Positions 29,598-48,657 are shown, counted from the stretch's first letter. The stretch is DNA of 64,000 bases from an uncultured Lachnospiraceae bacterium (GCA_945917765.1 CAMEHU010000001.1:29113-93112), one strand, 5' to 3'. Notes: generated by a model from the sequence alone, not told the origin. A program made the numbers and translations.

Positions 29598-29681
29598 AGT
29601 TCAATAATAAATGTCGAAATATGTAACAACAATCGTGTTACGCATTTCGACATTTTTTGACAAATTAAATTACTAATATTA

Positions 29682-30092
29682 TTAATCTCTACTATACAAA
29701 TCCCTTGTATAAACTTTATCTTTAACAACCTCCAAAGCACTTTCTAATCTATTAGCTAAAATAACATCACTATCTTCAGAAAATTCTTCGAAATCATTTA
29801 CAACTCTACAACCATTAAACTCAGTTGCCTTTAAAGTAGGTTCATAAATAATAATTTCAACATCCTCATCTTTTAATCTTTCAATAATACCTTGAATGGC
29901 ACTTGCTCTAAAGTTATCAGAATCTGTTTTCATTGTTAATCTATAAATACCAACTACTTCAGGGTCTCTACGCATAATCATTTCAGTTATATGTTTCTTT
30001 CTAGTTCTATTAGAACGTACAATAGCTCTAATTAAGTTTTGTGGTACATTATCATAATTAGCTAATAATTGCTTTGTATCTTTTGGTAAACA
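29682..30092 (-). pseudogene. ugd: 3' fragment of UDP-glucose 6-dehydrogenase, beginning at the catalytic Cys codon
   Basis: [13 protein letters not shown]...[22 protein letters not shown]...KVYTRDLY is the HasB/Ugd C-terminus. The expected upstream GYGGY is replaced by unrelated sequence. Confidence 0.9.
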
Positions 30093-30165
30093 ACCTGTCG
30101 CTTCTATTGTGTGTAATATTCTTAACAAAAACCAAAAGAAAACCTGTATTTATGCAGGTTTTAAG
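30085..30165. other. Putative att junction and terminal palindrome
   Basis: ugd homology stops at 30092/30093; the palindrome aaaacctgtatttatgcaggtttt overlaps the last recombinase stop codon. Confidence 0.6.
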
Positions 30166-31847
30166 TAACTTTTGTTTTTCTTGACATATTTTAGTAAATT
30201 TTGATAAATATCTTGATATTTAAAAACAATCTCGACTTTTTTATCTTCAAAAATATATATGCATTCTATAAATTTAAAAAGTATATCTCTATCAATTTTC
30301 TTAAATAATTCTCTATTGTTAAAAAGTTTTATTAAATCAACTTGATAGTTTGGAATATTATCTAATTCTTCCAATTCCTTATCAATTATTTTAATTGTTT
30401 CTCTAATTTCTAAAATTTCATTATTATATGAACTTGAATAATTTTTATAATCTTCAAAAGTTATTATTTCTTCTTTCCAATCTGTATATAAAGATTGTTT
30501 TAATTTCATTTTTTGGTTAATACTTTCTGATAAAGTATTTTTTCTTTCTAGCAGAATATCTCCTTTTATTGATAATTTTTTATTTTTAGAAATCAATTCT
30601 AAATCATCATTTAATTTGGTAACTAACTTTATTTGCTTGTTAATTGATTTTCTTACAATTTCAATTAAATCGTCTTCTTTTATTCTATGAGGAGTACAGC
30701 CCTTTGAATTAACTTTATTAGTACCACATATATAATATTTTAATCTACTTCCATCTTTTCTTGGTCTTCTACTCTCTAAATAATAAAGTCCTCTATGACA
30801 ATCATTACAAATTAAAAAGCCTGAAAACAAAGCGTAATCATGATTTTTTCTTCTTATTTGAATTATCTTTGAATAATACTTTTCTTGAATCCATTTAAAA
30901 TCTTCTTTACTTACTAATGCTTCATGGGTATTTTCAACTCTAATCCAATCTTCTTTTTCTACATCTATTCTTTTCTTCAACTTATAACTTATTTTATTCT
31001 TTTTATTTTGAATTAAGTTACCTGTATAAATTTCATTTCTTAATATATTTGATATAATTCTTGGATTCCATTTTATTTCATCAATATTTTCATCTGTTAC
31101 AATATTAGTCTTATAAGATTGACCTTTTTGCTTTTTATATTGAGAAGGTGTTGGAAATTTTCTTTCGTTAAGATAATCTGCAATCTGAATTGCTGTTTTA
31201 TTATTTAATGCTAATTCAAAAATCAGTTTCACTATTTTTGCACCTTCCATATCAATTAGCAAATGATATTTATTATCTGGATCTTTTCTATATCCAAATG
31301 GTACATGTGCAGCTATATATTCTCCCTTTTTTTGTTTTATTCTATATACAGATTTTATCTTTCTTGAAATATCTCTTGCGTATTCATCATTAATAAGATT
31401 CTTGAAATTTACTAACATACTGCTCGATGACTCAGGATTTTTAAAGCTATCTATTTTATCAATTATTGATATGAATCGTACCCTCATAGTTGGAAAAGTA
31501 TCTTCTAAAAATCTTCCAACCTCTACATAGTTCCTGCCAAACCTTGATAAATCTTTAACTATGATTGTATCGATTTTACTTTTTTTTAAATCTTTTAACA
31601 TTTCTTGAAATCCTGGTCTATTGAAACTTGTGCCAGAATATCCATCATCTACATATTCACTAATAAAAACCAAATCTTCATTACTATCAATATACTTTTT
31701 TATAATTCTTCTTTGATTTTCTATACTATTACTCTCTGTATCTTTTTTAATTTTGTCTTCTTGGGATAATCTCAAATATATTCCAACTTTAAATAAAGTA
31801 TCATTTTCATTTCTATATCTCGAAATAGACATTTTCATCACCTCCAT
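30150..31847 (-). CDS. Large serine recombinase (4th in operon)
   Basis: YLRLS catalytic motif, DDGYSG, RPGF, DLSRFGRN, recombinase domain, Zn ribbon CNDC, coiled coil. Confidence 0.93.
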   Translation of the reverse strand: MEVMKMSISRYRNENDTLFKVGIYLRLSQEDKIKKDTESNSIENQRRIIKKYIDSNEDLVFISEYVDDGYSGTSFNRPGFQEMLKDLKKSKIDTIIVKDLSRFGRNYVEVGRFLEDTFPTMRVRFISIIDKIDSFKNPESSSSMLVNFKNLINDEYARDISRKIKSVYRIKQKKGEYIAAHVPFGYRKDPDNKYHLLIDMEGAKIVKLIFELALNNKTAIQIADYLNERKFPTPSQYKKQKGQSYKTNIVTDENIDEIKWNPRIISNILRNEIYTGNLIQNKKNKISYKLKKRIDVEKEDWIRVENTHEALVSKEDFKWIQEKYYSKIIQIRRKNHDYALFSGFLICNDCHRGLYYLESRRPRKDGSRLKYYICGTNKVNSKGCTPHRIKEDDLIEIVRKSINKQIKLVTKLNDDLELISKNKKLSIKGDILLERKNTLSESINQKMKLKQSLYTDWKEEIITFEDYKNYSSSYNNEILEIRETIKIIDKELEELDNIPNYQVDLIKLFNNRELFKKIDRDILFKFIECIYIFEDKKVEIVFKYQDIYQNLLKYVKKNKSYLKPA

Positions 31848-31907
31848 TACAATTTACTTTATTTTGATTGTTTGTACGATTGTGTCATTTTATATTTTGC
31901 ACATTAT

Positions 31908-31935
31908 AAAAGCAGAGCTTCAATTTACTCTGCTA
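31908..31935 (-). terminator. Possible terminator/attenuator between the 3rd and 4th recombinase
   Basis: Minus-strand agcagag..ctctgct stem followed by a short T tract. Confidence 0.5.
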
Positions 31936-33597
31936 TGTATTCTTTTTAATCTTTTTTGCTAACTTCAATAATTTTTTATATTCATCTTGATATTTAAATT
32001 CAATTTCAATAGTTCCGTCTTCATTTGAATAAATATTATTTATTAAATCATCAATTAACTTTTTATTAAGTGTTTTAATATTTTCATACTCTTTTATATT
32101 TTTAAATATTTCCTTATTATCATTTAGCTTTTCTTCTTCTTCCAATTTTTCAGAATATTTCTTGTATCTATCATTTAATATGTTAATTGTTTTTTCTGCA
32201 CCATTAACATATTTCATATATTCTTCTTTTGTAATAATACCAAGTTTCCAATCTTCATAAAACTTTTGCTTTATTTTCCTTTTTTCTTTCATTTCTTTTT
32301 CAATTCTTTCAATTGTTGCTTTTGTATCATTATCAGTTCCTTGATTTATTATTTCATCAATTAATTTGTCTGCTTTGAGATATAGTTTAATTTGATGTTT
32401 TATTGCTTTTAAAACAATCTTATCTAAATTTTCACTTCTAATCATATTTTTTATACATTCATTTCTAGAAATATTAGTATAGGTAGAACAATAATAATTG
32501 TAATTCATAATTTCTGGATTACTTCTTCTATGTCCTGTATATTTTCTAATCATAAATTTTTTACATTTACCACATTTCAAATGTCCTGCATATAAATTAG
32601 GCTGGCTTTTAATTGCACCTGTATATTGTTTTTCTTCTAATATCTTTTGAACTTTTTTAAATTCCTCTCTTGTAATTATTGCATCATGTGTATTTTCGAC
32701 AATGATCCATTCTTCTTTATCTGTTCTTATTGATTTATGGTTTTTATGACTTAAACATTTTTGTTTGCCTTGAATCAAATCACCACAATATACTTGATTT
32801 TCTAATATAGATTTAACCGATTGAATAGTCCATTTTTTATTAGAAATTGTTTCTTCTGTACAACTGGGATTTCCATATTTTAAATTTTGAACTTCTTTTT
32901 TATATCTTGAAGGGCAATAGATGTCATTATCGTTCAAATACCTTACTATAGCGCCATATCCTTCTCCATCTATGAATTTTTTATATATTAATTTTATTAT
33001 TTTAGCTGCTTCGTCATCAATTATAAACTTATGCTTATCCTCTGGGTTTTTGATATAGCCATAAGGAGCAAGTCCTTGCATAAAATTTCCTTTTTTAGCC
33101 CCAATAAGTTTAACACTTCTAATTTTTCTAGATATATCTCTACAATACTCTTCATTTATCATATTTTTAAAAGGAAATATCATGCTATTTAGTGATTCAG
33201 GATTTTTAAAATTATCTATTTTATCACTTATTGATATAAATCTAATTTTGTACTGAGGAAATACTTGTTCAATAAAATTTCCAACTTCAATATAGTTTCT
33301 ACCAAACCTTGACAAGTCTTTAACTATAATTGTATTTATAGATCCTTTTTGAATATCATCTAGCATTCTTTGAAAAGAAGGTCTTTTAAAGTCTGTTCCA
33401 GTAAAGCCATCATCTATATAATAATCATATAATTCAATATCACTCTCATTTTTTAAGTAATAATCAATTATTTCTCTTTGACTTGTCACAGAATTGCTTT
33501 CTTCTTTATCACCATCTTCTTGGCTTAATCTTATATATGCAGCACAATTAAATTTTTTCTTAGTTATTTCATTCGACTTATATCTACTTTTCCCCAT
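31933..33597 (-). CDS. Large serine recombinase (3rd)
   Basis: YIRLS, DDGFTG, DLSRFGRN, Zn ribbon CGKC. Confidence 0.93.
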   Translation of the reverse strand: MGKSRYKSNEITKKKFNCAAYIRLSQEDGDKEESNSVTSQREIIDYYLKNESDIELYDYYIDDGFTGTDFKRPSFQRMLDDIQKGSINTIIVKDLSRFGRNYIEVGNFIEQVFPQYKIRFISISDKIDNFKNPESLNSMIFPFKNMINEEYCRDISRKIRSVKLIGAKKGNFMQGLAPYGYIKNPEDKHKFIIDDEAAKIIKLIYKKFIDGEGYGAIVRYLNDNDIYCPSRYKKEVQNLKYGNPSCTEETISNKKWTIQSVKSILENQVYCGDLIQGKQKCLSHKNHKSIRTDKEEWIIVENTHDAIITREEFKKVQKILEEKQYTGAIKSQPNLYAGHLKCGKCKKFMIRKYTGHRRSNPEIMNYNYYCSTYTNISRNECIKNMIRSENLDKIVLKAIKHQIKLYLKADKLIDEIINQGTDNDTKATIERIEKEMKEKRKIKQKFYEDWKLGIITKEEYMKYVNGAEKTINILNDRYKKYSEKLEEEEKLNDNKEIFKNIKEYENIKTLNKKLIDDLINNIYSNEDGTIEIEFKYQDEYKKLLKLAKKIKKNT

Positions 33598-35191
33598 TGC
33601 TTATCTCCTTACTAAAATTTCTTATCATTTCATATACATCATTATTCAAATATATAATTTCAATTGATTTATCTGATTTTACATATATTACTTCAATCAA
33701 TTCTTCTAATATTTTTTCATTAAGTTCATCTAAATTACGATATTTCTTAAAACATCTTATAAAATCTTTAATAATTCTTTTGTCATGTGATAATGTGAAT
33801 TCCTTTTCTTTAAGTTTGTTTAATTCTTTCAAAAGTTTCTTCATTTCGTTATTGTATGTTTCAAAATAAAAATCATAATCGTCATTTGTAATTAAATCTT
33901 TCTTTAAATCGTACAAAATTTCTTTTTTTAAATTTTCTAATTCTTCCATTCTCTTATTTTTTAAAGATATTTCATCTGCAATTTTAACTAATTCTTCATT
34001 ATCATGCATAGAATCGAGTTTATTAATTTCAAAATCTATTAGAAATTCTGTATCACTATTTATTTTCTCAATTACTTTACTCATTAATTCTTCATATTTA
34101 ATACTTCTGCTTAAGCAAAGTTTCTTTGACATTCTTTTATAAGTGAAACAATTATATACCAAATAAGTTTTATCTTTGTATTTGTTGCATGATGTTTTAA
34201 CCATATTTTTTTTACAATCATAGCATTTTAAATATCCTCTAAAGATTGAGTTAAAAACATTTCTTTTTAACTTTGTAGCTGTCGTCCTAGATAAGATACA
34301 TTCTTGAGCTTTTTTGAATGTTTCTTTATCTATTATTGGCTCATGATGATTTTCAACTCTAATCCAATCTTCTTTTGGCACAGGAACACTAACTCTTACT
34401 TTATTATTTAGTGTGGTAGTTTTTCCTTGAACTAAAGTGCCACAGTAAACTTCATTTTTTAGAATATTACTTATTTTTGTAGAATCCCAATAATATTTTT
34501 TAGAATGCTCAACATTATTTCTTTTACAAAAATGTTCTTTTGGACAATCAATATTTTCTTCATTTAGTTTATAAGCAATTTTTGTTGAGCTTTCTCCTGC
34601 AATGCACATTTCAAATATCATTGTAATTATATCTTTAACTTCTAAATCTATAACATAGTTTTTATCTTTTAATAAATATCCATATGGTGCAGAACCACTG
34701 GTTATTTCTCCATTCAACCTTTGTACTTCTTTTACTTTTTTTACTTTTCTAGCAATATCCCTACAATATTCATCGTTCATTAGATTTTTAAATGGTACTA
34801 TTACGCTATTTAAAGACTCGGGATTTTTAACATTATCAATGTTGTCATTAATAGATATAAATCTTATTCCCATACTTGGGAATATATAATCTATATATCT
34901 TCCAACTTCGATATAGTTTCTACCAAATCTTGATAAATCTTTAACTATAATGCAATCTATTTTTTTATCATACATATCTTTCATCATTCTTTGAAATCCT
35001 GGTCTATCAAAATTTGTTCCAGTTCTGCCATCATCAGAATAATATCCGTAAATCGAAATATCATCTTGCTCGTCTATAAATTCGTTAATTAAATCCCTTT
35101 GATTCTTTATAGAATTGCTTTCTTCAAATTTGTTGCCATCTTCTCTCGAAAGTCTTATATAGGCTCCAGCTTTATAAATTTTTTTATCCAT
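33584..35191 (-). CDS. Large serine recombinase (2nd)
   Basis: YIRLS, DDGRTG, DLSRFGRN, Zn ribbon CYDC. Confidence 0.93.
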   Translation of the reverse strand: MDKKIYKAGAYIRLSREDGNKFEESNSIKNQRDLINEFIDEQDDISIYGYYSDDGRTGTNFDRPGFQRMMKDMYDKKIDCIIVKDLSRFGRNYIEVGRYIDYIFPSMGIRFISINDNIDNVKNPESLNSVIVPFKNLMNDEYCRDIARKVKKVKEVQRLNGEITSGSAPYGYLLKDKNYVIDLEVKDIITMIFEMCIAGESSTKIAYKLNEENIDCPKEHFCKRNNVEHSKKYYWDSTKISNILKNEVYCGTLVQGKTTTLNNKVRVSVPVPKEDWIRVENHHEPIIDKETFKKAQECILSRTTATKLKRNVFNSIFRGYLKCYDCKKNMVKTSCNKYKDKTYLVYNCFTYKRMSKKLCLSRSIKYEELMSKVIEKINSDTEFLIDFEINKLDSMHDNEELVKIADEISLKNKRMEELENLKKEILYDLKKDLITNDDYDFYFETYNNEMKKLLKELNKLKEKEFTLSHDKRIIKDFIRCFKKYRNLDELNEKILEELIEVIYVKSDKSIEIIYLNNDVYEMIRNFSKEISNGEK

Positions 35192-36806
35192 AGTTTATCT
35201 CCTTTCCTATCATTTCTAATATTTTCTTGTTTATATCGTTATATTTAAATTTTATTTCTATTTTATTATTTTCAAATACATATATTGTTTCAATTAATTC
35301 ATCTACAGTTTCTCTATCCAATGAAGTGATATTACAAAATTGCTTATACTTCACAATATAATTATCTATTGTTTCGTCTTTCATGCCATTAAGTTTATCT
35401 TCAAATTCTTTAATTTTATTATTAATTTCATTTATGCTTTTAGAATAATTTTCTACAAATATAAAATAATCATTTTGAGATATAATGTTTTTTTTCCAAT
35501 CCATATATGATTCTCTTTTCAATACATCTAATTTTGATAATTCTTCATTTAGTTCTTTTATTTTCTCTTTATACTCTGCTTTCATTTCTTCTTTTCTATT
35601 TTCAGCATAAATTTTTTTTATTAATTTTTCTTGTTCTAAAACAAGTTTAGTTTGATTTTGAATTGCTTTTAATACTAAATCTTCTAAAACTTCATATTTA
35701 ATACCATGTCTTGTACATAAATTATGAGATTTTCTTGTATAAGTTGAGCAATAATAGTGAACCACTCTTGATCCATCTTTTCTTATAGTGCCAGATGTAT
35801 TTTTATGCATAGCACATTTACAATCACCACACTTAACTTTCCCTGCAAATGTTGATATTGTCCCATCATGATTACATTTCCATCCTCGGCTATCTAACAT
35901 CTTTTGAACTTTATCAAAATCATTATAACTTACTAATGCTTCATGAGTTCCTTTTACAATAATCCAATTTTCTTTGCTGTTTTTTACTCTTTTGTGTATT
36001 TTATAGCTAACTGTCTTATATTTACATTGAACCATTTCACCTAAATACACTCTGTTTCTTAATATATGAGCAACCATACTATCATTCCAATAGTTGCTTT
36101 TACCACTATTTCTATAATTACATTTGATTTTTAAAACATTTATTTTATGAAGTGATGGAGTATTTATTCCATCTTTATTTAATTTTCTGGCAATTGCTGT
36201 TGTTCCTAATCCTTTTAGTGCATTTTTAAATATTTTTTTTACAACTTTTGCAGCCTCGTCATCTATAACCAATTTATGTTTGTCTTCGGTACTTCTAATA
36301 TATCCATAAGGAATCATTGAACCCATAAATTCGCCATTTCTTTTTCTTGTATTTAATGCATATTTAACTTTTTGTGATATATCTCTACAATATTCGTCAT
36401 TCATTAAATTTTTGAAAGGTACTATAATACTGTTTATTGATTCTGGATCTTTATAACTATCTATACAATCATTAATCGCAATGAATCTAATATTATTAAC
36501 AGGAAATATCTGCTCTAAATAGTTACCAACTTCAATATAGTTTCTACCAAATCTTGATAAATCTTTTACTATAATGGTATTTATAACATTATTTTCGACA
36601 TCAGCAATTAATCTTTTAAAATCTGGTCTGTCAAAATTTGTTCCAGACCATCCATCATCAATATAATAGTCATATACATTTAGTTCTTTATCCTCACTAA
36701 TATAACTATTAATAAGTTCTCTCTGATTTGTTACAGAATTACTTTCTTCTTTATCTCCATCTTCTTGACTTAATCTAATATATATTCCAACATTCCATTT
36801 ATTCAT
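35184..36806 (-). CDS. Large serine recombinase (1st)
   Basis: YIRLS, DDGWSG, DLSRFGRN, Zn ribbon CGDC. Confidence 0.93.
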   Translation of the reverse strand: MNKWNVGIYIRLSQEDGDKEESNSVTNQRELINSYISEDKELNVYDYYIDDGWSGTNFDRPDFKRLIADVENNVINTIIVKDLSRFGRNYIEVGNYLEQIFPVNNIRFIAINDCIDSYKDPESINSIIVPFKNLMNDEYCRDISQKVKYALNTRKRNGEFMGSMIPYGYIRSTEDKHKLVIDDEAAKVVKKIFKNALKGLGTTAIARKLNKDGINTPSLHKINVLKIKCNYRNSGKSNYWNDSMVAHILRNRVYLGEMVQCKYKTVSYKIHKRVKNSKENWIIVKGTHEALVSYNDFDKVQKMLDSRGWKCNHDGTISTFAGKVKCGDCKCAMHKNTSGTIRKDGSRVVHYYCSTYTRKSHNLCTRHGIKYEVLEDLVLKAIQNQTKLVLEQEKLIKKIYAENRKEEMKAEYKEKIKELNEELSKLDVLKRESYMDWKKNIISQNDYFIFVENYSKSINEINNKIKEFEDKLNGMKDETIDNYIVKYKQFCNITSLDRETVDELIETIYVFENNKIEIKFKYNDINKKILEMIGKEINYG

Positions 36807-37042
36807 ATTCTAATTCCCCATTCTGGAATAATAATGTTTGAAATTTTAACACCATTCCAATATTTAATCTTAATATTTGCACATTTATTTTGAAAAATTT
36901 TATTTTTAATTTCTCCCATTGTTATATACTCTCTTTTTATTTTTGCTAAAGTCTGTGAAATCATATTTATATTTAATACACTATCTTCAGTTTCTTCTTT
37001 TTTGCTAATTCTAACGTACATAGCAAACTTCAATTCATTCAT
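36803..37042 (-). CDS. 79-aa protein starting with a serine-recombinase catalytic-strand motif
   Basis: FAMYVRISKKEETEDS parallels GIYIRLSQEDGDKEES; GAAGGGAG RBS; ATGA overlap with recombinase 1. Confidence 0.65.
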   Translation of the reverse strand: MNELKFAMYVRISKKEETEDSVLNINMISQTLAKIKREYITMGEIKNKIFQNKCANIKIKYWNGVKISNIIIPEWGIRI

Positions 37043-37120
37043 ATTTTTCTCCCTTCGGCTACATAATATCTAAAATTTAAAGACCAAGCCAATGTGCGAT
37101 TCTGGAATTTTTATACTTGA

Positions 37121-37408
37121 TTATTTATTAATAATTTGCTTTATAGCATTATGAATACAGTCCTCAGCCTCCACTCCATTTTCTTGATATGAAAATTTAA
37201 CAACATAACCATCAATATTAAAAAAATAAGGATTACTAACTTTTTTTAAAAAGTCAATAACCCTTTCTTCTGGTTCTAAATTTTCATCTATTTTTATATT
37301 ATCTATATTATCTATTTCACTAACATTAATGTTTTTAATATTCATACTTTTGTAATTATTTATTTTACTTTCGATTTCTTTTTGTTCTTCTAAACTCAAC
37401 GATCTCAT
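37121..37408 (-). CDS. DUF6870-like small protein that typically precedes serine recombinase clusters
   Basis: IKIDENLEPEERVIDFLKKVSNPYFF...VVKFSY pattern and position. Confidence 0.65.
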   Translation of the reverse strand: MRSLSLEEQKEIESKINNYKSMNIKNINVSEIDNIDNIKIDENLEPEERVIDFLKKVSNPYFFNIDGYVVKFSYQENGVEAEDCIHNAIKQIINK

Positions 37409-37607
37409 AATTACCTCCTTCTAAAACTTTTATTCTGTAGCATTCTAAATAAAATTCATTTTTTTTATAATTCCAGATAGAGGATTTCATAACTACATCA
37501 AGCACCTTTTCTTTAGCCTCATTCATATTATGTGCTTGCAACATCATATTTTCTTTTTGGTTATTATGGACAATACAAACTAGATAATTAAATAATCTTT
37601 CTCTCAT
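37365..37607 (-). CDS. Hypothetical protein
   Basis: 80-aa ORF with a GGAGG RBS, overlapping both neighbours. Confidence 0.6.
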   Translation of the reverse strand: MRERLFNYLVCIVHNNQKENMMLQAHNMNEAKEKVLDVVMKSSIWNYKKNEFYLECYRIKVLEGGNYEIVEFRRTKRNRK

Positions 37608-37705
37608 TGCTTATCCTCCCAAGAAGAACATCTACTTGAAACTATACAAGCAGCATAACAAAATATTGCTATTATCAAAAATATTATTCCTATTATTATA
37701 ATCAT
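37604..37705 (-). CDS. Unannotated 33-aa single-TM peptide MIIIIGIIFLIIAIFCYAACIVSSRCSSWEDKQ
   Basis: AGGAG RBS inside the mazF 3' end; ATGA overlaps at both ends. Confidence 0.55.
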   Translation of the reverse strand: MIIIIGIIFLIIAIFCYAACIVSSRCSSWEDKQ

Positions 37706-38079
37706 TTACTTTTCCTCCTAAATTCCAAAGTTTTTTCTAATCCTTTATTTATCTTTTTTATAGTTTTATTATTTGCTCTACCTATAAATTCATTCTTAAT
37801 TCGGCTTTTATCTAATACTCTTATTTGTTCTAATAAAATAACTGAATCATACTTCAGCTTTCCAAATTTTTTTATATTTATATGAGATGGCAAATTTGGT
37901 TTATTGTTTATTTTTTTAGTAAGTGGTGCAATTATAACGGTTGGATTTTTCCAGTTTCCTTTATCAGTTTGTACAACAATTACTGGTCTAATTCCACCTT
38001 GTTCACTACCTATTTTAGGTTCTAAATTTGCATAAAAAATTGTGCCTTTTAAATATCTCAAAACTACTCCTTCCTTCAT
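37702..38079 (-). CDS. PemK/MazF family toxin (no adjacent antitoxin)
   Basis: GSEQGGIRPVIVVQ, IIAPLT, ILLEQIRVLDKSR; the real start is probably TTG at 38061. Confidence 0.88.
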   Translation of the reverse strand: MKEGVVLRYLKGTIFYANLEPKIGSEQGGIRPVIVVQTDKGNWKNPTVIIAPLTKKINNKPNLPSHINIKKFGKLKYDSVILLEQIRVLDKSRIKNEFIGRANNKTIKKINKGLEKTLEFRRKSK

Positions 38080-38139
38080 GTAAAAAGGTCAAACATAATT
38101 TGACCTTTATTGATTTCATTATATTTATTATTGTTAATA

Positions 38140-38285
38140 TTTTTCCTTGAACCCCTTAACACTGGGAAATCATCAAACGATTGAAAGCTACTTCAATTCC
38201 ACGAGAATTTCACTCTCTTGTGGTTCTCACAAGACTGCCCCCATTGCGTGAGTCTGTGGCTAGGCAGGAGTATCATTATTACTAT
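38140..38285 (-). ncRNA. Candidate structured RNA leader upstream of the mazF-recombinase operon
   Basis: GC-rich non-coding island with several stems, including GAGAG-TGAAA-TTCTC (T-loop-like) and agact/agtct. Confidence 0.4.
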
Positions 38286-38512
38286 TATTAATCTTCGCAT
38301 ATTAGGAGCAACCTAATTTTATAATCAAATATTAATCGACATGCGTATTTATTAATGTGCTTTTAATAATAGGAATGTATTTGATGAATGTATATAAAAT
38401 TTTCAAAGATCATAAAGTTTCTTAGCTTTAAAAATAAAAGCGAGGAACTTTGAAAGGACTTTATTCCTTTCAATTGTTTCCTCACTTAAATCAGAAATCG
38501 GAACCTATTTTT

Positions 38513-38992: not shown

Positions 38993-39058
38993 CTTTATTC
39001 CTCCAATCAATCTAAATTTTTTAAATTGATTGGAATAGGTGGACTTCTACACCTAAAA

Positions 39059-39075
39059 ACCGACATTTTTCGACA
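39059..39075 (-). promoter_or_regulatory. Tandem Spo0A-like boxes upstream of the ICE sigma-like gene
   Basis: Minus strand reads TGTCGAA-aaa-TGTCGGT. Confidence 0.45.
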
Positions 39076-39505: not shown

Positions 39506-40612
39506 TTACTGATCGTTCTTTAACAGCTTTTGAGATTTGTCTATGTCAATAAAATAAATCATTTCCAATATTAAAATAAAATTATATTGATATGAATAAT
39601 TATTTTCAAAAATACCATATAAAGAAAATAATATAAACACCAAAGATATCATTTTGTTTTTGGAAATTTTTTTGGCAACAGAAAAATTAATTATTATATA
39701 TAATGTAAATATTATAATTCCATCAATATATAAATGAGTTAAATATACATTATCTAAAGGAAAACCCGTAATAATAGATTTATCAAACAAACCTATATTA
39801 TATGTTGTGACATATTTATTCCAAAAATATAGCCTATTACTTAATATCTCATTTAACTTTCCAAATTGTAAATATTTACTTGCGAGAAAAATAGATATAA
39901 TTGTTAATATAAAATAACTATATTTCATATATTTCTCATACTTATTACTGCTAATTTTATCTGTTATTAGATTTAATATAGCCAAAATAATTGCAATTAA
40001 AAATCCTGTTCTACACAAAGTGATTTTATAAAAAAATAAACTAATCAAAAATATTATAAATGATACTTTTATTTTTTTAGCCAGTACATAATCTTTTTTA
40101 TATATCATAAATGAGGCAAATATTGGTATTAAGCACAAAAACAAAATATTAATTCCAGCAAAACCAAAGCTGTATCTTGTCACTATACCATCAGCCATTA
40201 CTCGTGCAGAATTGTTAGATGGCAAAATGCCAATCAAATATAAAAGAATTGTACATATAAATAATAATAATGAATTTATAAAATAATATTTTATAAATTT
40301 TTCATCTCCATTTTCTTCTACAGAAAATATAATTGCAAATATAATTGCAAATAGGAAATCGAATTTTGGATTAATAAAAACTATAATGCCTCCCATTATT
40401 AAAAGACAAATTACTTTTTTAAAATCCTTTTTTCTTATTTTATAGCTCAATATCGAAATAAACGAAACAAGTATAAATAATGTCATAATTATTGTCGGTG
40501 TTTCAAATTTTCCGACAAACAAATAATTCCACATTGAAAAATATTTTAAAAATAATGCTACAAAAACAATAACAAACAAAATCAAATTCTTTGGCTTTAT
40601 TTTCATTTTCAA
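39506..40612 (-). CDS. Wzy-like polysaccharide polymerase
   Basis: About 10 TM segments, RYSFGF, CRTG, SNRLYFW, PLDNVY; last gene of the glycosyltransferase cluster. Confidence 0.72.
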   Translation of the reverse strand: MKMKIKPKNLILFVIVFVALFLKYFSMWNYLFVGKFETPTIIMTLFILVSFISILSYKIRKKDFKKVICLLIMGGIIVFINPKFDFLFAIIFAIIFSVEENGDEKFIKYYFINSLLLFICTILLYLIGILPSNNSARVMADGIVTRYSFGFAGINILFLCLIPIFASFMIYKKDYVLAKKIKVSFIIFLISLFFYKITLCRTGFLIAIILAILNLITDKISSNKYEKYMKYSYFILTIISIFLASKYLQFGKLNEILSNRLYFWNKYVTTYNIGLFDKSIITGFPLDNVYLTHLYIDGIIIFTLYIIINFSVAKKISKNKMISLVFILFSLYGIFENNYSYQYNFILILEMIYFIDIDKSQKLLKNDQ

Positions 40613-40618
40613 ACCTCC

Positions 40619-41641
40619 TTATCTAGAACCAGTAATTACATTATAAAATTTAGGCAACATTTTATTTATAATCTTTGAAATTAATTGTATCAACCACACT
40701 GTTAATATTATAGTTAAAATGTATACTATTATTGAAACATAAGAATTATATCCTAAAATAATAAATAAGATTTTTCTTACTACTTTTATAACAGGCAAGT
40801 GAATACAATAAATAAAGAAACTTATTTTTTCAATATTATATATTTTATACTTATATAAACTAAACATATCCAAAATAGATAATAAAATAATAGGAGATAA
40901 CATTCTATAAATATAATATATCCTTGATGTTTCTTCAAAAGTAGATACAATAATTGCAAACAAAACATATAAAATTATAAATATTGGTAACTTGCTTTTT
41001 TTATTTTTAACAATATTTTCTTTTATGTCATAATCTTTGCTATGTATTCCCATATTTGCACCAAATAGATATATTGGCAACCAAAATATTGGATTAGAAT
41101 ATCCAAATTTAAATATCAAATTTACTGTTAAACATATAAGCATAATAATATAGTTTAATTTTTTTGACTTTTTCATTATAAAATATATTGCAGGTGCTAA
41201 AAAACTATAAATTATTAAATCACGTACAAACCACATACCTTCAGCACAATTAGCCATCAAAATATTTTGAAAAATATGACTTATACCAAGTTCAAATGTA
41301 TTATTAAATAATGTGTTTACCTTAGGAATTAAACAAATTAATTCATAATATATTAAGAAAAATATTGACCAAAAAAAGTATGGAATAACCAACGAAAAGA
41401 ATCTGCTTTTATATTTTTCTTTTATTTTTGAAAAGTCGAAATTTCTGTAAAATAAATAAGCTGATAATATAAAGAATGCTGGAACACTTGCATCACACAT
41501 TACAGAAATAATTTTATATATTTTTGTTATCATAAAATTATTATCGCTAATAAATCTCAAACAATTAGAATGCAATATTACAATTAATAATACAAGAATA
41601 AAATTAATATGTGTTATTTTTTTTGATACATTTTTATTCAC
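40619..41641 (-). CDS. Acyltransferase-3 family (O-acetyltransferase)
   Basis: VILHS, VPAFFILSAYLF, LVIPYFFWS, MWFVRDL, SFFIYCIH. Confidence 0.85.
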   Translation of the reverse strand: MNKNVSKKITHINFILVLLIVILHSNCLRFISDNNFMITKIYKIISVMCDASVPAFFILSAYLFYRNFDFSKIKEKYKSRFFSLVIPYFFWSIFFLIYYELICLIPKVNTLFNNTFELGISHIFQNILMANCAEGMWFVRDLIIYSFLAPAIYFIMKKSKKLNYIIMLICLTVNLIFKFGYSNPIFWLPIYLFGANMGIHSKDYDIKENIVKNKKSKLPIFIILYVLFAIIVSTFEETSRIYYIYRMLSPIILLSILDMFSLYKYKIYNIEKISFFIYCIHLPVIKVVRKILFIILGYNSYVSIIVYILTIILTVWLIQLISKIINKMLPKFYNVITGSR

Positions 41642-43041
41642 TTTTTTCGTTCCTTTCCTAAAAAATCATATTTTATATAATTAAAATTAATACAGAAATA
41701 AAATAATGCAGAAATAGATACTTGTAATAATAATTTTAAATATATATTTTTTATCAAACATCCTATAACTATAATTATAAGTGCCATGGCTATACATTTA
41801 TATAAATATTTTATAAAAAATTTAATCACATTTTTATAATCAATAAAATTCTTTGTACACACAATTTGATAAAGCATAACAAAAAATTCAGCTACTATGG
41901 TACCAATGCACGCACCATATGCACCATATTTCCTTATAAATATTAAATTTAGCACAAAATTCACAACAGCTCCAATAATAGTTGAATATACATAGATGTT
42001 GTCTTTTTCTTTTGGGATTAAATAGCTTGTTCTAATAACATTTGCAATTGATGTGAATATTACAGTTGGAATTAGAAGTTTGATAATATTACCAGTAATC
42101 TCAAATTCCTTTCCAAAGAAAATTGTTGAAAAATCAGAACTTACTAAGAATATTCCAAAACACATAGGCATAATAAAGAAAAATGTTAATCTAAATGTAT
42201 CCATTATCTTTCTTTCATATTCTTTATCATTGGTTTTTGACATGTGTGGCAACATTACTGTACCTAAAGCTGTTATAAAACTAATAGGAATATTAATTAT
42301 CTTTTCAGCACTCTCATAGTTTCCAAGTTCAATAGTATTTGAAAACATTCCAATCATAGTTTTATCCATAACTCTGTATATAGAATATGCTATTATAGGA
42401 ATAAACAATATCAAGCAAGGCTTCAAATTCTTCATAATTTCTTTAAATGATGGTTTACTAAATTTAATATATTTTTTTATATACAACCATAAATAAGCTT
42501 GACTAATAAAAGTACTTCCACTCATCAATAGAGTATATTTCCACAAATCATTGCTATCTTTTACAAATACAAAAGTTAAAATTAATGAAAGTACTTTTAT
42601 TATAATATTTCTACTAATAGTAATTTTAAACTTTTCTATCCCAAAGAAAAACCAATTAATATCCAATAGCACACTTAGTAAAAAAATAGATTGTATTAAC
42701 ATTATTTTCAAATTATATCTATACATAAAAAATATAAATATATAGTAAGCAGCAATCATTATAGATGTCAAAATAAATTGTAAACAATAAATATTAATAA
42801 AATTTTCTGACATTTTTTCTTTATCTTCACTGCTTTTAGCTATTTTTCTCGATCCATAATTATTTATTCCAATTAAACCACATAACATAAAATAGTAAAC
42901 TATTGAATATGTATAAGAATATATCCCTACATTTTCAACACCTAATGCTCTAGAAATATAAGGCGTTGAAATTAGTGGAATGATGAAAATAAAAATTTGA
43001 TACACTATATTATACATAAAATTTTTATTTGTTGTTTTCAT
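41638..43041 (-). CDS. wzx: Wzx oligosaccharide flippase
   Basis: KNFMYNIVYQ...PYISRALG, MDKTMIG, LGTVMLP, YGAYGACIGT. Confidence 0.88.
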   Translation of the reverse strand: MKTTNKNFMYNIVYQIFIFIIPLISTPYISRALGVENVGIYSYTYSIVYYFMLCGLIGINNYGSRKIAKSSEDKEKMSENFINIYCLQFILTSIMIAAYYIFIFFMYRYNLKIMLIQSIFLLSVLLDINWFFFGIEKFKITISRNIIIKVLSLILTFVFVKDSNDLWKYTLLMSGSTFISQAYLWLYIKKYIKFSKPSFKEIMKNLKPCLILFIPIIAYSIYRVMDKTMIGMFSNTIELGNYESAEKIINIPISFITALGTVMLPHMSKTNDKEYERKIMDTFRLTFFFIMPMCFGIFLVSSDFSTIFFGKEFEITGNIIKLLIPTVIFTSIANVIRTSYLIPKEKDNIYVYSTIIGAVVNFVLNLIFIRKYGAYGACIGTIVAEFFVMLYQIVCTKNFIDYKNVIKFFIKYLYKCIAMALIIIVIGCLIKNIYLKLLLQVSISALFYFCINFNYIKYDFLGKERKK

Positions 43042-44167
43042 TGTCTCTTCCACCAACACTTTCCCTCAAATATTTTATTGCCTCCATCTGCAATTCTTTT
43101 ATTTGATTATTGTATTCGGAATAATCCACATCTTTTAAATAATTAAAATTATTATCAAAATCATATGCAATAAGTCTATCTAGCATTTTCAATTGTGATA
43201 AAAGAGTTATAACTCTGTCATCATCTCCATACATATCTCCATTTTTTATAGTAAAAAATTTCTTATTATAAATAGTCGAAAATATTGTTCCATGAAACGA
43301 AGTAGTTAATACTAAATCAGCATTTTTTATATAGTATAAATAAGATGATGGATTTTCGTATTTAGCAAGTTCAAAGCCGAATCTTTTTATCATTCTTGTG
43401 CTATATGATTTACAACTCCATGTTATTACTTTCAAATTATATTTTTTTGAAATTTTCTTTACATATTTACATATATTTTGATTAAAACTTGGACAATAAA
43501 AAAATATATATTTTTCTTTTTCATTAATATCATTAGCAAGTATTTCATCATAGCAAGTTGCTGTTAAAATTAAAGTTGGATCTATTAGTACAGGCACATC
43601 TTTATTAATCATATCTTTAATCCATTTTTGTCCATTTCTTTCACGTATAGATAAATAATCATAGTTCATTAAATATTTTTTATATTTTTCAGGATTTTTC
43701 GCATATTTTAGTATATTTTTTGAACCAAAGCTTGGTGCATAAGCAACTTTTTTTGCACTATTTACCCATGGCAAAAAATATGCGTCGTCTGCATCTGGAA
43801 TAGTCACATTCCAAATTTGGTCACTCCCAGAAACAATACAACTATAATCTTTATCATTTAGTTCATTCATATTATTAAATTTATTTTTTGATAAATGAAA
43901 ATTTTTATCTCTAAATTCTTCGTATTTCATATTATTCATTTTTAATTTTCTATGATTAGGCAACAATAAAATATTCTTTAAAATATTTTTCAAAGAGTTA
44001 TTCTTAAAAAATATTTTATATAAATTTTTTTGACCTTCATTAGAAAAATCTATTATTTCTACATTATCACTGCAATATTTTTCAATGGATTTTTGCATTG
44101 CATATGATTCAAGCATAGAACCACAATTATATGAATTATGAAACGTTATTATTCCTATCTTTTTCAT
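43025..44167 (-). CDS. Polysaccharide pyruvyl transferase family protein
   Basis: ITFHNSYNCGSML, SGSDQIWN, YAPSFG, SIRE, DPT, TSFHGTIFS. Confidence 0.88.
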   Translation of the reverse strand: MKKIGIITFHNSYNCGSMLESYAMQKSIEKYCSDNVEIIDFSNEGQKNLYKIFFKNNSLKNILKNILLLPNHRKLKMNNMKYEEFRDKNFHLSKNKFNNMNELNDKDYSCIVSGSDQIWNVTIPDADDAYFLPWVNSAKKVAYAPSFGSKNILKYAKNPEKYKKYLMNYDYLSIRERNGQKWIKDMINKDVPVLIDPTLILTATCYDEILANDINEKEKYIFFYCPSFNQNICKYVKKISKKYNLKVITWSCKSYSTRMIKRFGFELAKYENPSSYLYYIKNADLVLTTSFHGTIFSTIYNKKFFTIKNGDMYGDDDRVITLLSQLKMLDRLIAYDFDNNFNYLKDVDYSEYNNQIKELQMEAIKYLRESVGGRDNENNK

Positions 44168-44179
44168 TTTTTTCTCCTT

Positions 44180-45154
44180 TTATATTAAAATATATTCTTC
44201 ACTATTTTTTTTGAATTTATTTCTTCGTATAAATCTAAACAAATGATACAAAAGACATTTCAGTTTAATTTTGTATAATGCATATTTAATTTTATTGCTT
44301 TTACTAACCATCAAACATAAAGTTTCTGCCTTATTATATGGAAAACTATATAACCTACATATATACTTCTTTGCATCACTATACTTTTCAATGTAAGATA
44401 TCCTCTCATAAAGCATTATAATAGCTCCTTGCAAGCAAAATTTTTTTATTTTTTCTTTATCATCTTCCAAAATATCGTAATCATTTAATAGATTAGTAAT
44501 TTTTTCATGAAATAATACATCAGAATCAAATATTCTGATATCAAATTTTTTTGTAGTTTGACCTACATATCTTCTATACAAATAAATTGGCTCGTTTATA
44601 CTTTGTATCTTTTCGGCTTTACTTAATGCTTCAATATTAAATAACATATCCTCTCCATTTATTATCTTATCATTAAACAAAATATTATTTTTCTCAATAA
44701 ATTCTTTTCTAAAAATTTTTGAATATGGACCAGCTATACATATATTTTCTTTATTATAACCAATTATATATTTTAGCAAATCATTTTTATTAGAGTCTAA
44801 ATTGTACTTTGAAAAATAAACTATGTCATAATTTTCTGCCATATAACTATTTATCTTGTCAAACCAATTTTTTTTAAGTTCATCATCAGCATCTACAAAC
44901 ATTATATAATTGCCTTTAGCTTTTTTAATTCCTAGATTTCTAGAGTATGAAACTCCATTATTAGAATTATCTATAAGTTCAATATTTTTATACTTTTTCA
45001 TAAGTTCTTTTATAATTTTTAAGCTATTATCTTTCGATCCATCATTTATAAGTATTACTTCGAATGAATTTTCAATATTATCAAAAATTGATTTCATACA
45101 TTTTTCTAAATACTTTTCGGCATTGTATACTGGAATAATTATCGACAATTTCAT
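44180..45154 (-). CDS. GT2 family glycosyltransferase
   Basis: SIIIPVYN, NDGSKD, GVSYSRN, FVDADD, GEDMLF. Confidence 0.92.
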   Translation of the reverse strand: MKLSIIIPVYNAEKYLEKCMKSIFDNIENSFEVILINDGSKDNSLKIIKELMKKYKNIELIDNSNNGVSYSRNLGIKKAKGNYIMFVDADDELKKNWFDKINSYMAENYDIVYFSKYNLDSNKNDLLKYIIGYNKENICIAGPYSKIFRKEFIEKNNILFNDKIINGEDMLFNIEALSKAEKIQSINEPIYLYRRYVGQTTKKFDIRIFDSDVLFHEKITNLLNDYDILEDDKEKIKKFCLQGAIIMLYERISYIEKYSDAKKYICRLYSFPYNKAETLCLMVSKSNKIKYALYKIKLKCLLYHLFRFIRRNKFKKNSEEYILI

Positions 45155-46125
45155 TCTTTTTCACCTAATTTCTTTATTTTTTTCAACACTTTTCTAAAAT
45201 TCACATATATATAAATAAATAATAAATTTTTATTTAGGTACATACTAAGTAATATTGAATAGATTTTACTATTAATGTATTCTTTTTGTATTTTATTAAT
45301 TATACTTATGAAATCTTGATTATTTATAATCGTTTTTAATTCTTTAAATTTGTTTACTTTAGCTAATTCTTTTTCAATTAATATAATTTTTTTGTTATCA
45401 ATTAATTTTTCATAACAATTTTTTGTAATCGAATTAATTTCATCAAGAGATTTATTAAAAGACTTTACATTGTTTAAAATGTTATCACTTGATAACGTAA
45501 TACTATTTGTATTGCTTAAACAATAATAATAATTTGCTTCAGCAAATTTTACATATTTAATATTATTTAAGTATTCAACTAGAAATAATGTATCTTCCAT
45601 AAAATGTAATTCAGATGAAAACTTCATTTTTTTTATTATTTTTGTTTCAAACAAGCAACCCCAAACACATCCTGGAAATGAATTAGCTAGTATTTTTTCA
45701 ATAAAATCACTAACCAAAATCTTATCTCTTTCAGTTTTATTATTAAAAATTTTATTACCTTTAAATGTTTTATAATTACTTCTAACCATAGTATCTTTTT
45801 CACAACAATTTAAAAGAGCTTCCAACAAATTTTCTTCCAAATAATCATCTGAATCTACAAATGTTATGTAATCTCCTTCTGCATTTGCTATTCCCCTATT
45901 TCTTGCACTTGAAGGTCCTTCATTTTTTTGAGTAAAAATTTTCAAAATTATATTTTTATTTTCATTTTTGAACTTTTTACATATTTTTAAACTATTATCT
46001 TTTGAACCATCATCAACAATTATTATTTCATAATTACTATAGGTTTGTCTTTTTATAGAATATAAACATTTTTCAATGTACTTTTCGGCATTATATAATG
46101 GAATAATTATTGAAATTTTTTTCAT
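45151..46125 (-). CDS. GT2 family glycosyltransferase
   Basis: SIIIPLYN, DDGSKD, GPSSARN, FVDSDD, MEDTLF. Confidence 0.92.
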   Translation of the reverse strand: MKKISIIIPLYNAEKYIEKCLYSIKRQTYSNYEIIIVDDGSKDNSLKICKKFKNENKNIILKIFTQKNEGPSSARNRGIANAEGDYITFVDSDDYLEENLLEALLNCCEKDTMVRSNYKTFKGNKIFNNKTERDKILVSDFIEKILANSFPGCVWGCLFETKIIKKMKFSSELHFMEDTLFLVEYLNNIKYVKFAEANYYYCLSNTNSITLSSDNILNNVKSFNKSLDEINSITKNCYEKLIDNKKIILIEKELAKVNKFKELKTIINNQDFISIINKIQKEYINSKIYSILLSMYLNKNLLFIYIYVNFRKVLKKIKKLGEKE

Positions 46126-46138
46126 TTTCTTTCCTCTC

Positions 46139-47185
46139 TTATTTGTTGTTATATATGCATCTAATTTTATTTATATATTTATTAATATCACTTACTTCAT
46201 CAAATTGTTGTAATGCATTTTTAGAATATTCTTTTAATTTTTTATCATCTTTCAACAAACTGATAATAGCATCCTCTAGCTCACTGTCATTGCTTGATAA
46301 ATACCCGTTTTTATTTTGCTTAACAATATCTTTCAAACCATCTGTAGGTGTGCTAATTATAGGCTTACCTAATGCCATTGCTTCTAATGCTACCATTGGA
46401 GTTCCTTCATATCTTGATGTCATAACTAATATTCTAGAATTATTTAAAATCTTGTAAGGATTTGTAACATACCCAAACAATTTTACATTTTCATTTAATT
46501 CAAAATTATCTATTAATTCTTTTATACTTTCGTACAATTCTCCTGTTCCAACTATTGCTGCCTTAATATTGTAACCTTTTACTTTAATATTTTTTATTAT
46601 TTTTAATAATCTTTCAGGGTTTTTAGCATAAGTCAATCTTCCTAAATAAATAATATCAAATGGTTCATATTTATTATTGTCATTTTCTATACTATTGATT
46701 ATTTCCTTTTTATTAATTACATTATATAAAATAATAGATTTTTCTTTAACTTTATCTTTAAATATATAATTATCAAAAGCGCTTTGTGAAACCCATATGA
46801 TTTTAGAAAAATTCTTAGAGCAATAATTAAACATCAGCGTTTTAATATTTACTTTTCTCATATTTTCATGATTCGAATGAACATGAGAAATTATTTTTGT
46901 TTTATTTCCACATATTAAAGAAGCCATAACGCTTGCTTTTATATCATGGGCATGAATTATATCTGGATCAAATTCTTCTATTGCTTTCTTTGTAGATTTA
47001 TAATCAAATTTATTAAGCTTTAAATGTTTTACTTTTCTCTCAGCTAGGCTTGCTTCATTTGGACCACTAGGACTACAATACACCATTTGAAAATCTTTGT
47101 CATTTTGAAATCCATTTATTATTTGGCATGCTACATTTTCTGCACCCGAGAAAACATCAGTACATATTAAATGTAATACTTTCAT
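46139..47185 (-). CDS. GT4 family glycosyltransferase
   Basis: GAEN, IIHAH, SRYEGTPMVALEAMALG (E-x7-E). Confidence 0.9.
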   Translation of the reverse strand: MKVLHLICTDVFSGAENVACQIINGFQNDKDFQMVYCSPSGPNEASLAERKVKHLKLNKFDYKSTKKAIEEFDPDIIHAHDIKASVMASLICGNKTKIISHVHSNHENMRKVNIKTLMFNYCSKNFSKIIWVSQSAFDNYIFKDKVKEKSIILYNVINKKEIINSIENDNNKYEPFDIIYLGRLTYAKNPERLLKIIKNIKVKGYNIKAAIVGTGELYESIKELIDNFELNENVKLFGYVTNPYKILNNSRILVMTSRYEGTPMVALEAMALGKPIISTPTDGLKDIVKQNKNGYLSSNDSELEDAIISLLKDDKKLKEYSKNALQQFDEVSDINKYINKIRCIYNNK

Positions 47186-48327
47186 TAATTCATCACCTTT
47201 CTTCTATATTCTTCATAATATTTTTGAGTTAATTTATTTGCTTCTTTTTTTATATTAAAATCTTTTTTAGAAATTTCGTTGATACAATTCTTTCTTTTAA
47301 ATGATTTATATTTCTTTAAAATTGTATATGTCCACTCTTCTACACTCTGATTTAACGATAAAAACTCAGTAGTATCCAACACTTTTGTTTCTTTTGTCAT
47401 ATCATCAGAAAATATACATAATAATCCTGTTGCTTGTGCTTCAACTCCAACAACTGGTAATCCCTCATAAAGGCTTGGTAAGCAAAATACATCAAATGCT
47501 TGATATAATTCATTTATATCATTTCTTTGCCCTAAAAATTTAACACTGTCCTCTATTCCTAATATTTTAACTTTTTCTTTCATTTCTCCCATTAAAGGGC
47601 CTTGTCCTGCAAGTAATAAAATAGATTTTTCTTTTTGTTTATGTACTTCATTAAATATATCAATTAAAAATCTATGATTTTTTTGTTCAACAAATCTACC
47701 AACATGACCAATTACTAAAGTATCATCTTCTATATTTAATTCTTTTCTTTTTTCTTTTCTTTTCTCTTCATCATATTTAAATTTATCTAAATCAATTGCA
47801 TTGTTTAAAAGATAAACATTACCATTATCATATTCTTTGTTTCCAAACAACCATCTGCCAGCAAGTTCTGAACAACACATATAATCTGTTGCAAATACTT
47901 TGCTAAATGGTCTTAATACTTGCTTTAATAAATTCTTCTTTTTTTCTTTTTTATTTGTCGTGCTATGACTATGTGCAATTCTTACTGGAACTCCAGCACA
48001 CTTTGCAGCAAACAAACTAAAAACTGATAATGTATTAATATGTGAGTGAACTATTTTGTATCCCCCAGATTTTAATACTTCTTTTAGTTTTTTATGATAC
48101 TTAAAAACTTTTTGATATGGTGGTATTAAAATAACTTTACCACCCATTTTTTCTATTTCTTCATATGGAATATTCGTAGAATCTTCATCACATATAAAAT
48201 CAAACTGAATTTTAGTTCTATCAATATGTCTATAATAATTCATTACGACAGATTCCACTCCACCACCAAGCCATTTTCCTATAATTTGTGCTACTCTTAT
48301 CGGCTCATTTTTTTTCACAAAATTCAC
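47185..48327 (-). CDS. GT4 family glycosyltransferase (EpsF-like)
   Basis: GGVESVVMNYYR, RIAHSH, HVGRFVEQKNH, PSLYEGLPVVGVEAQ. Confidence 0.9.
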   Translation of the reverse strand: MNFVKKNEPIRVAQIIGKWLGGGVESVVMNYYRHIDRTKIQFDFICDEDSTNIPYEEIEKMGGKVILIPPYQKVFKYHKKLKEVLKSGGYKIVHSHINTLSVFSLFAAKCAGVPVRIAHSHSTTNKKEKKKNLLKQVLRPFSKVFATDYMCCSELAGRWLFGNKEYDNGNVYLLNNAIDLDKFKYDEEKRKEKRKELNIEDDTLVIGHVGRFVEQKNHRFLIDIFNEVHKQKEKSILLLAGQGPLMGEMKEKVKILGIEDSVKFLGQRNDINELYQAFDVFCLPSLYEGLPVVGVEAQATGLLCIFSDDMTKETKVLDTTEFLSLNQSVEEWTYTILKKYKSFKRKNCINEISKKDFNIKKEANKLTQKYYEEYRRKVMN

Positions 48328-48614
48328 TTCTCCTTAAAAAATCATTGCACTATACAATGCAATGATTAAATACTCAAACTAACTACTATTGTATAATCTA
48401 TACTATATTTTTAAATCAATCTGTTTTTTCTTTCAAATATAATGTTCATCTGAAAGAAACTCGAAAATATTATACACTAAAAGGACTAAAATTTCAACTT
48501 TTTCAGCCATTTTTTTACTCAATTTTGCATAGTAAATTTTGTCAAAATTTATGTTTACGAAAATTCCATTATATTTCATATGGTTTTCTGATATTTTATC
48601 AATATCTTATGTAT

Positions 48615-48645: not shown

Positions 48646-48657
48646 ATAATAATTCTT

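Follow-up and report, generated by a model that had tools for sequence, protein, structure and literature searches.

The type of capsule or extracellular polysaccharide (EPS) that a bacterium displays decides phage adsorption, immune recognition and colonisation, and its changes are usually ascribed to homologous recombination in conserved flanks of the locus or to phage-borne modifying genes. Serotype-converting phages are known with gtrABC and oac (Shigella and Salmonella phages) and as D3 (Pseudomonas), while Tn5397 (TndX) and Tn4451 (TnpX) are conjugative transposons of Clostridia with large serine recombinases. Here we describe a probable integrative and conjugative element (ICE) with serine recombinases and a whole-pathway glycan cargo, which appears to be parked in a capsule (cps) locus as a replacement of its core. 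It occupies part of a stretch of 64,000 nucleotides (nt), hereafter the window, which is C1:29113-93112 of assembly G000 (GCA_945917765.1; 1.82 Mb, 27% G+C, 77 contigs) from an uncultured Lachnospiraceae bacterium of the low-G+C Clostridia. C denotes a contig of an assembly, G with a number a genome, L a metagenome locus and X a public sequencing run.

As Tn5397 and Tn4451 are generally described, their layout is that of this element: the conjugation module is followed by an accessory slot, then by a gene for a small sigma-like regulator, and the outermost gene encodes a serine recombinase; the Resolvase, Recombinase and Zn_ribbon architecture of the recombinases is a further point in common. 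The element differs from them in its four tandem recombinases, in its target, the catalytic codon of ugd, and in carrying a glycan cassette and a priming transferase instead of a resistance gene. Like the serotype-converting phages in their usual description, it would be mobile DNA altering a host surface glycan, acetylation included; those phages, however, add a modification or a replacement polymerase to the resident pathway, whereas this element brings a whole repeat-unit pathway, which takes over the position of the resident one.

In Bacteroides fragilis YCH46, a conjugative transposon lies inside the Wzx/Wzy locus PSI/9 and disrupts a gene; in the passages concerned, the authors considered that its insertion or loss could vary expression, and cited conjugative transposons as linked to duplication and translocation of polysaccharide loci (PMC3090145). 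Phylum and type of element are different there, and those passages mention neither a repeat-unit cassette nor a recurrent ugd target. The SPbeta prophage, which has a serine integrase, splits spsM, a polysaccharide-synthesis gene of the spore former Bacillus subtilis; in this and other gene-intervening elements, both gene halves flank the insertion and excision rebuilds the gene (PMC4191935, PMC5499854). In G000, by contrast, only the 3′ part of ugd flanks the element, the 5′ half being absent, and the element is conjugative and not a phage. In capsule exchange by homologous recombination in Klebsiella and pneumococcus (PMC8259999, PMC13043062, PMC5850285), a variable core is swapped between conserved flanks, as here, and an identity break in a priming-transferase gene of our locus resembles the crossover of such flank exchange. 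Unlike in these species, the incoming core lies in a self-transmissible element and one of its boundaries is a site-specific recombinase junction. No conjugative element combining a ugd target with Wzx/Wzy cargo was found in the literature searched, and PMC5542703 contained no relevant passage.

The right end of the element lies at the catalytic codon of ugd

Protein families were assigned with Pfam and NCBIfam, and weak homology leads were taken from a language model (Atlas). Coverage in public runs was read from assembled Logan contigs, and a single metagenome scan with the terminal recombinase as query gave nine loci. Rightward of 30150, all long open reading frames (ORFs) of the window lie on the minus strand, as do the ugd remnant and the other element features of the window given below.

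A preliminary description of this stretch had proposed that the element interrupts ugd, and this was borne out. The remnant (29682-30094, catalytic Cys codon to stop; Pfam UDPG_MGDP_dh_C in the ORF 29682-30128) is the 3′ third of the gene and covers only positions 252-388 of 388 of the E. coli-type UDP-glucose 6-dehydrogenase PRK15057 (NCBIfam). Among 60 relatives, eight (seven of the 29 in the genus) have a full-length ugd frame of 383-406 codons, which matches only residues 13-148 of the fragment ORF. The break falls between GYGGY and CLPKD, at the Cys codon (window ~30092-30095): the junction reads GCGACAGG followed by TTG and TTTACC, whereas intact ugd genes have GGTGGATA before the same TTG and TTTACC. 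The right end of the element (30093-30149), which closes with ATAGAAGCGACAGG and TTG, overlaps ugd in this common TTG.

We observed the same end in independent contigs. L076 and L081 carry the same recombinase (97-98% amino acid (aa) identity) and the same end sequence, joined to ugd at the same TTG. The element side has 97.3-97.8% DNA identity in these two loci, while their ugd 3′ flanks have only 73% and 70% DNA identity to that of the window (94/136 and 79/136 aa). Since one element end thus stands on three divergent ugd alleles at one codon, insertion there is site-specific. In L075, the same end (99.4%) is fused to an FrhB_FdhB-like gene, at a Cys codon in a Cys-rich motif (L075 3995-5062), which fixes the right end by four independent junctions. 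Hence the earlier view of ugd as the target holds for three alleles and a single codon, but ugd is not the exclusive target; the second one may be a glycan-locus gene too. Logan contigs of four runs span 29501-49500, with thin cover of 29501-30167 and contigs that end or diverge at 30037-30101; this could reflect other host flanks, although such contigs are no proof.

Four large serine recombinases follow inwards from the junction. The terminal one, recombinase 4 (30150-31847), has its stop codon 55 nt from the junction and copies of 97-100% aa identity in L075, L076 and L081. Next come recombinases 3 (31933-33597), 2 (33584-35191) and 1 (35184-36806), the 5′ 0.9 kb of the last being 95% identical in L077-L079. 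All four carry Resolvase, Recombinase and Zn_ribbon_recom domains (Pfam) and, near the N-terminus of each translation, the motif R-L-S-(Q/R)-E-D, the Ser of which we take to be catalytic. A Pfam scan of 17 element proteins encoded between ParA and the cassette, which are not every ORF there and five of which had no match, detected no other recombinase family.

The 5′ part of ugd is absent from G000. PF03721 and PF00984 matched only paralogues on C16 and C33, at ~32% identity in the case of PF03721, and a search of the whole assembly with the full-length Ugd of the eight relatives gave only the C1 fragment and these paralogues at 31-35%. Nowhere in the assembly do the N-terminal NAD, central and C-terminal domains of a PRK15057-type Ugd stand in one frame. 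It had also been supposed that the insertion removes the uronic-acid precursor of the resident glycan. However, C16 encodes an intact 455-aa TuaD-like UDP-glucose 6-dehydrogenase (530 bits to TuaD, its best NCBIfam match, against a strict TuaD cut-off of 700 and far above the nucleotide-sugar dehydrogenase subfamily cut-off), and loss of UDP-glucuronate is therefore not implied; to judge from this gene, its supply is probably intact. On C33 (12866-14108), in an apparent other glycan locus, a frameshift within the C-terminal domain divides a second TuaD-like gene into frames of 353 and 99-104 aa.

A scan of genome contigs for the recombinase returned just a 35% relative and a 47-aa relic. The relic (L074 6001-6141, equal to G007:C21:23744-23884) is 94% identical to the terminal recombinase and lies ~2.8 kb downstream of an intact ugd in that relative; it is a trace of earlier visits of such elements to the locus.

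A glycan cassette is linked to conjugation genes

The element measures ~49-50 kb and carries an eight-gene cassette of the Wzx/Wzy type at 39506-48327. Pfam identified two GT4 (Glycos_transf_1; 46139-47185, 47185-48327), two GT2 (Glycos_transf_2; 44180-45154, 45151-46125), a polysaccharide pyruvyl transferase (PS_pyruv_trans, 43025-44167), a Wzx-type flippase (Polysacc_synt, found by NCBIfam as well, 41638-43059) and an O-acyltransferase (Acyl_transf_3, 40619-41641), as in the preliminary description. The gene listed there as Wzy-like (39506-40612) encodes a polytopic membrane protein that matches no family. Its label is at best putative, based on position and membrane character; a weak language-model lead pointed to O-antigen-ligase-like clusters (0.95-0.96; 161-164 shared features). 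The cassette had been said to lack a priming transferase, Wzz and nucleotide-sugar genes, and in agreement with this, Bac_transf, Wzz and nucleotide-sugar families had no Pfam match in 39506-48327.

The cassette looks like its own transcription unit. A terminator-like hairpin (39467-39495) stands immediately past it, one of three found versus 1.1 expected in shuffles. The best promoter-like site (48469-48497; 11/12), a weak one, lies within the 330-nt gap ahead of the first GT4 gene; promoter-like sites overall were at the level of shuffles (101 versus 102).

Past the hairpin, a regulatory module with a small sigma-70 region-4 protein (38513-39010) and a MazF/PemK-family toxin gene (37702-38079), both recognised by Pfam, leads to the recombinases. 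On the other side, the cassette adjoins the final gene of the transfer module, which encodes a 554-aa membrane protein without a family match (48658-50322), with homologues beside VirB4 in G012, G036, G019 and G225. The module further comprises a VirB4-like ATPase (P-loop_TraG/AAA_10, 50340-52673), a VirD4-type coupling protein (T4SS-DNA_transf, 55274-57073), a MobA/VirD2-type relaxase (PF03432, 58905-60254) and a pilin-like protein. Relaxase, coupling protein and VirB4-type ATPase are thus all found in one block by Pfam.

The claim that the cassette lies inside the conjugative element was supported in other samples. In runs of three studies, contigs extend from the first GT4 gene into the last transfer gene with few differences (X5 45251-48823, X9 47668-49500, X12 47777-49104), and contigs of two of these runs bridge the cassette and the sigma module, again with few differences (X5 36537-39748, X9 38550-39655). 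At least half of the words of 40001-50000 were contained in 19 of the 23 listed runs, which come from 13 studies and are mostly pig-gut or faecal; four of them may be the source sample.

The far end adjoins conserved host cps genes

The element continues past the window (63630-64000) through the rest of C1, which ends within an SNF2/methylase gene, and then through C2:1-13117. Residues 6-1768 of the G008 homologue of this gene align to C2:5315-57 and residues 1765-2396 to C1:95743-93848, and G386:C21, from another genus, is colinear and unbroken across the C1-C2 join at 97-99% identity. From the SNF2/methylase gene onward, C2 carries a sortase, a SpaA-type LPXTG adhesin, ParB, ParA, a small ORF and an intact priming transferase. 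The order in the element is therefore ParA/ParB, sortase and LPXTG adhesin, SNF2-methylase, Toprim, relaxase, VirD4, VirB4, accessory slot, sigma/MazF and the four recombinases. At the break in the SNF2/methylase gene, ~53 nt (C1:95732-95784) and ~55 nt (C2:1-55) have no counterpart in the uninterrupted G386 copy. On the gene strand, the C2 end begins with GTGCGAGAC, which we take to resemble the 5′ end of a group II intron, and an unassembled insertion in this gene is likely.

Beyond the transferases, C2 holds VanZ, CpsB (CpsB_CapC), a CpsD-like P-loop protein and cpsC (Wzz), all full length (Wzz/CpsD/CpsB at C2:14823-17301). A host cps locus with a priming transferase had been named as something to look for at the far end, and cpsC, cpsD, cpsB and priming-transferase genes do stand there on C2. 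The 5′ half of ugd, to be looked for there too, is missing throughout the assembly, and the far flank consists of priming-transferase genes instead. Chain-length, tyrosine-kinase and phosphatase genes were found on the host side only, and there are no resident repeat-unit genes between the priming transferase and the element. In element-free relatives (G007, G017), the order is cpsB, vanZ, priming transferase, variable genes and ugd. The element occupies the exact place of the cps variable core, and G000 has lost both the resident core and the 5′ part of ugd.

The two priming-transferase genes differ in state. An intact small priming phosphoglycosyltransferase gene (C2:12356-13117; Bac_transf 1-178/179) adjoins ParA, and the host gene beside it is damaged (Bac_transf 1-139/179), with ~27 residues missing near the C-terminus. 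Comparison of G000 with G386, whose ParA is 99% identical, gave 41-65% protein identity for the upstream host genes and 45-78% identity through VanZ and the damaged transferase. Identity then rises to 93-100% from C2:13040, ~77 nt (~codon 26) inside the intact transferase, and keeps this level up to and including ParA. As ~90% of the intact gene is 93-100% identical across genera, most of this gene travels with the element. The cargo had been thought to depend on host initiation; this idea gave way to a priming gene of the element's own, which the comparison largely confirms. The identity break inside the intact transferase looks like a crossover of element-borne and resident copies, and is the basis of the two-step route proposed below. 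In G006, an element-free cps locus with the same pilin-sortase neighbourhood begins with a transferase gene of this type (73% aa).

The DNA that follows the intact transferase was aligned in G000, G006 and G019 and contained no common sequence, so that the left junction could not be placed. C2:13170 was considered as an element end and discarded: a 7/12 symmetry seen by eye was not above chance, and the junction is an internal deletion of the host transferase common to G386.

Related elements carry other cargo in the same slot

A search of relatives for the same backbone with different glycan cassettes had been suggested; G019 has such a cassette, and G225 has non-glycan cargo in the same slot. 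G019, of the same genus, has VanZ, a damaged transferase, an intact transferase of 68.5% identity, ParA (72%), ParB (77%) and a decayed transfer module (VirB4 85-91%). Past VirB4 and the homologue of the 554-aa protein, its slot holds GT2, Glf, GT4, Wzy_C, a pyruvyl transferase, an FrhB-like protein and Wzx; what is left of the sigma module and a 3′ piece of a Wzx gene come next. Element genes of G019 are 72-91% identical to those of G000, and flanking core genes 43-63%. The FrhB-like gene of this cassette, which has Fer4 domains, adjoins the pyruvyl transferase gene, and is of the kind met at the L075 junction.

In G225 (C7:18635-108396), two relatives stand head to tail with 78-86% DNA identity, and no priming transferase lies upstream of either. 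The slot of the first holds an ABC transporter/two-component module and type I restriction genes, then a sigma-like gene and two recombinases. The second starts ~360 nt past the last recombinase gene of the first and has other, non-glycan ORFs within ~6 kb past its last transfer gene, where the DNA ends. G012 and G036 differ again. G025:C9 was set aside as a related element, being a decayed remnant followed by housekeeping genes.

Among the metagenome loci, L079 (on contig OHXA01000007.1) contains the same cassette and sigma/MazF module at 96.7-96.9%, in a host with flanking cps genes of 43-76% protein identity. From the sigma module onward, L079 and L078 (on contig ULRH01014942.1) agree at 98.9% over 12.3 kb, but their cassettes are unrelated, that of L078 consisting of GT2, pyruvyl transferase, Wzy_C, Caps_synth, Wzx and acyltransferase genes. 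The DNA of the sigma/MazF module was also compared with all 30 genus genomes and gave nothing above 75-78%, in short stretches only.

Probable replacement of the cps core and alternative readings

We observed the anatomy of the element, the site specificity of its right junction, a cassette linked to transfer genes in other samples as well, and cargo that varies among the sisters, and we think it rather probable that this is an ICE of gut Clostridia, ~49-50 kb long, whose whole-pathway glycan cargo replaces the core of the cps locus and is not a reversible switch. Replacement follows from the loss of the ugd 5′ half and of the repeat-unit genes once resident there; ugd cannot be rebuilt by excision. 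We infer from the gene content that the cell would now be making the element-encoded glycan, possibly pyruvylated and O-acylated, by means of host chain-length and kinase genes. Such a state could have arisen in two steps. The recombinase end would integrate into the catalytic Cys codon of ugd, the gene closing the cps locus in relatives. Recombination between the element-borne and the resident priming-transferase genes might then remove the resident cassette together with the left attachment site and the 5′ part of ugd, and the element would be locked in.

More tentatively, and with doubt prevailing, we consider that this lineage of elements may use the conserved genes flanking cps loci as landing pads, and may perform a self-transmissible serotype replacement by ugd integration and transferase recombination, its own cassette being placed under host chain-length and kinase genes. 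If this were true, the sister elements with other cassettes (G019, L078) would point to a way in which capsule types are generally exchanged between genera of gut Clostridia. One ugd codon is targeted in at least three divergent hosts, and the element is near-identical in gut metagenomes of 13 studies. If active, it would offer a testable route by which surface glycans spread between uncultured genera of gut Clostridia, and serine recombinases with a defined, conserved target site.

Several observations weigh against replacement by an ICE. At the left end, we detected no left attachment site (attL); the composite of the C1 and C2 parts contains no inverted copy of the right arm when up to 8 mismatches are allowed, and its backbone shares homology with G008 and G225 only from the small ORF preceding ParA onward. 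Of this element, the G386 assembly contains the left 27 kb only, and neither the cassette nor these recombinases occur in it at high identity. Neither a circular form nor an empty site was seen in the assembled Logan contigs, which drop rare forms. The terminal recombinase has no homologue above 46% in 150 family genomes (39-43% for near-full-length ones), so no orthologous ugd-targeting set was found there, and ugd was beside none of the 19 homologue loci checked. The putative Wzy (39506-40612) has no Pfam or NCBIfam match and no BLASTP similarity to the two Wzy_C proteins of the sister cassettes. Finally, G000 has 5.5% contamination and is split into 77 contigs, and L078 and L079, each with a single truncated recombinase, also fit a chromosomal cps variable region.

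This last point is the reason why we retain, as an unlikely alternative, that cassette and priming transferase are the variable region of the host cps locus, and that an integrase-less transfer module and a sigma/MazF/recombinase module landed separately on either side of it. Gene order and strand are indeed those of a normal cps operon, two different cassettes stand beside one conserved sigma/recombinase module in L078 and L079, and the element-free cps locus of G006 is headed by a transferase of the same type. The transfer module would, however, be left without a recombinase of its own, and the same order recurs in G019, where the element genes are far closer to those of G000 than the flanking core is. 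In the G225 backbones, non-glycan cargo occupies the same slot, followed by sigma and recombinase genes, and in L079 cassette and sigma module are 96.7% identical, with flanking genes at 43-76% protein identity.

The preliminary description had favoured a reversible converter: insertion into ugd would silence the uronic-acid glycan of the host, the cargo would draw on host functions for initiation and export, and the former serotype would return on excision. The site-specific cut in ugd, the cassette itself, with neither priming transferase nor Wzz, and the host cpsC/D/B genes at the far end would all suit it. We nevertheless regard it as very improbable, and for the G000 genome it is already contradicted: neither the N-terminal nor the central domain of this type of ugd exists anywhere in the assembly, no resident repeat-unit genes separate the priming transferase from the element, another genus has the intact priming transferase at element-level identity, and C16 has an intact TuaD-like dehydrogenase. 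We give hardly any credence to a chimeric C1-C2 join or chimeric junctions produced by assembly or binning, for which the fragmentation and contamination of G000, the lack of overlap between the C1 and C2 ends, and at least two further element-like regions in the same assembly might speak. G386:C21 runs colinear over the join at 97-99%, the only other SNF2 gene in the assembly is complete and lies on C6, the ugd junction recurs in independent contigs, and Logan contigs of four runs cover 29501-49500.

Other features of the window and the assembly

Within the transfer region, ArdC-N-like and DUF3801 proteins are encoded at 57273-58921, a PIN_12 protein at 60338-61348 and a DUF3991-Toprim protein at 62660-63619, all by Pfam. 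In the otherwise 97-99% identical G386 copy, the PIN_12 stretch (60338-61348) is exchanged for ~560 nt of unrelated DNA.

G000 contains another conjugative element, a more distant one (C6:7393-41352), with an SNF2 gene of 45-48% identity, VirD4, VirB4 and one serine recombinase at its end, and further element fragments lie on C55, C58 and C65.

On the host side of the right junction, the ugd remnant adjoins a gene for a 964-aa KAP-family P-loop NTPase (window 26148-29042), and the ORF beside the latter (window 25251-26048) presumably encodes the sporulation protease YabG.

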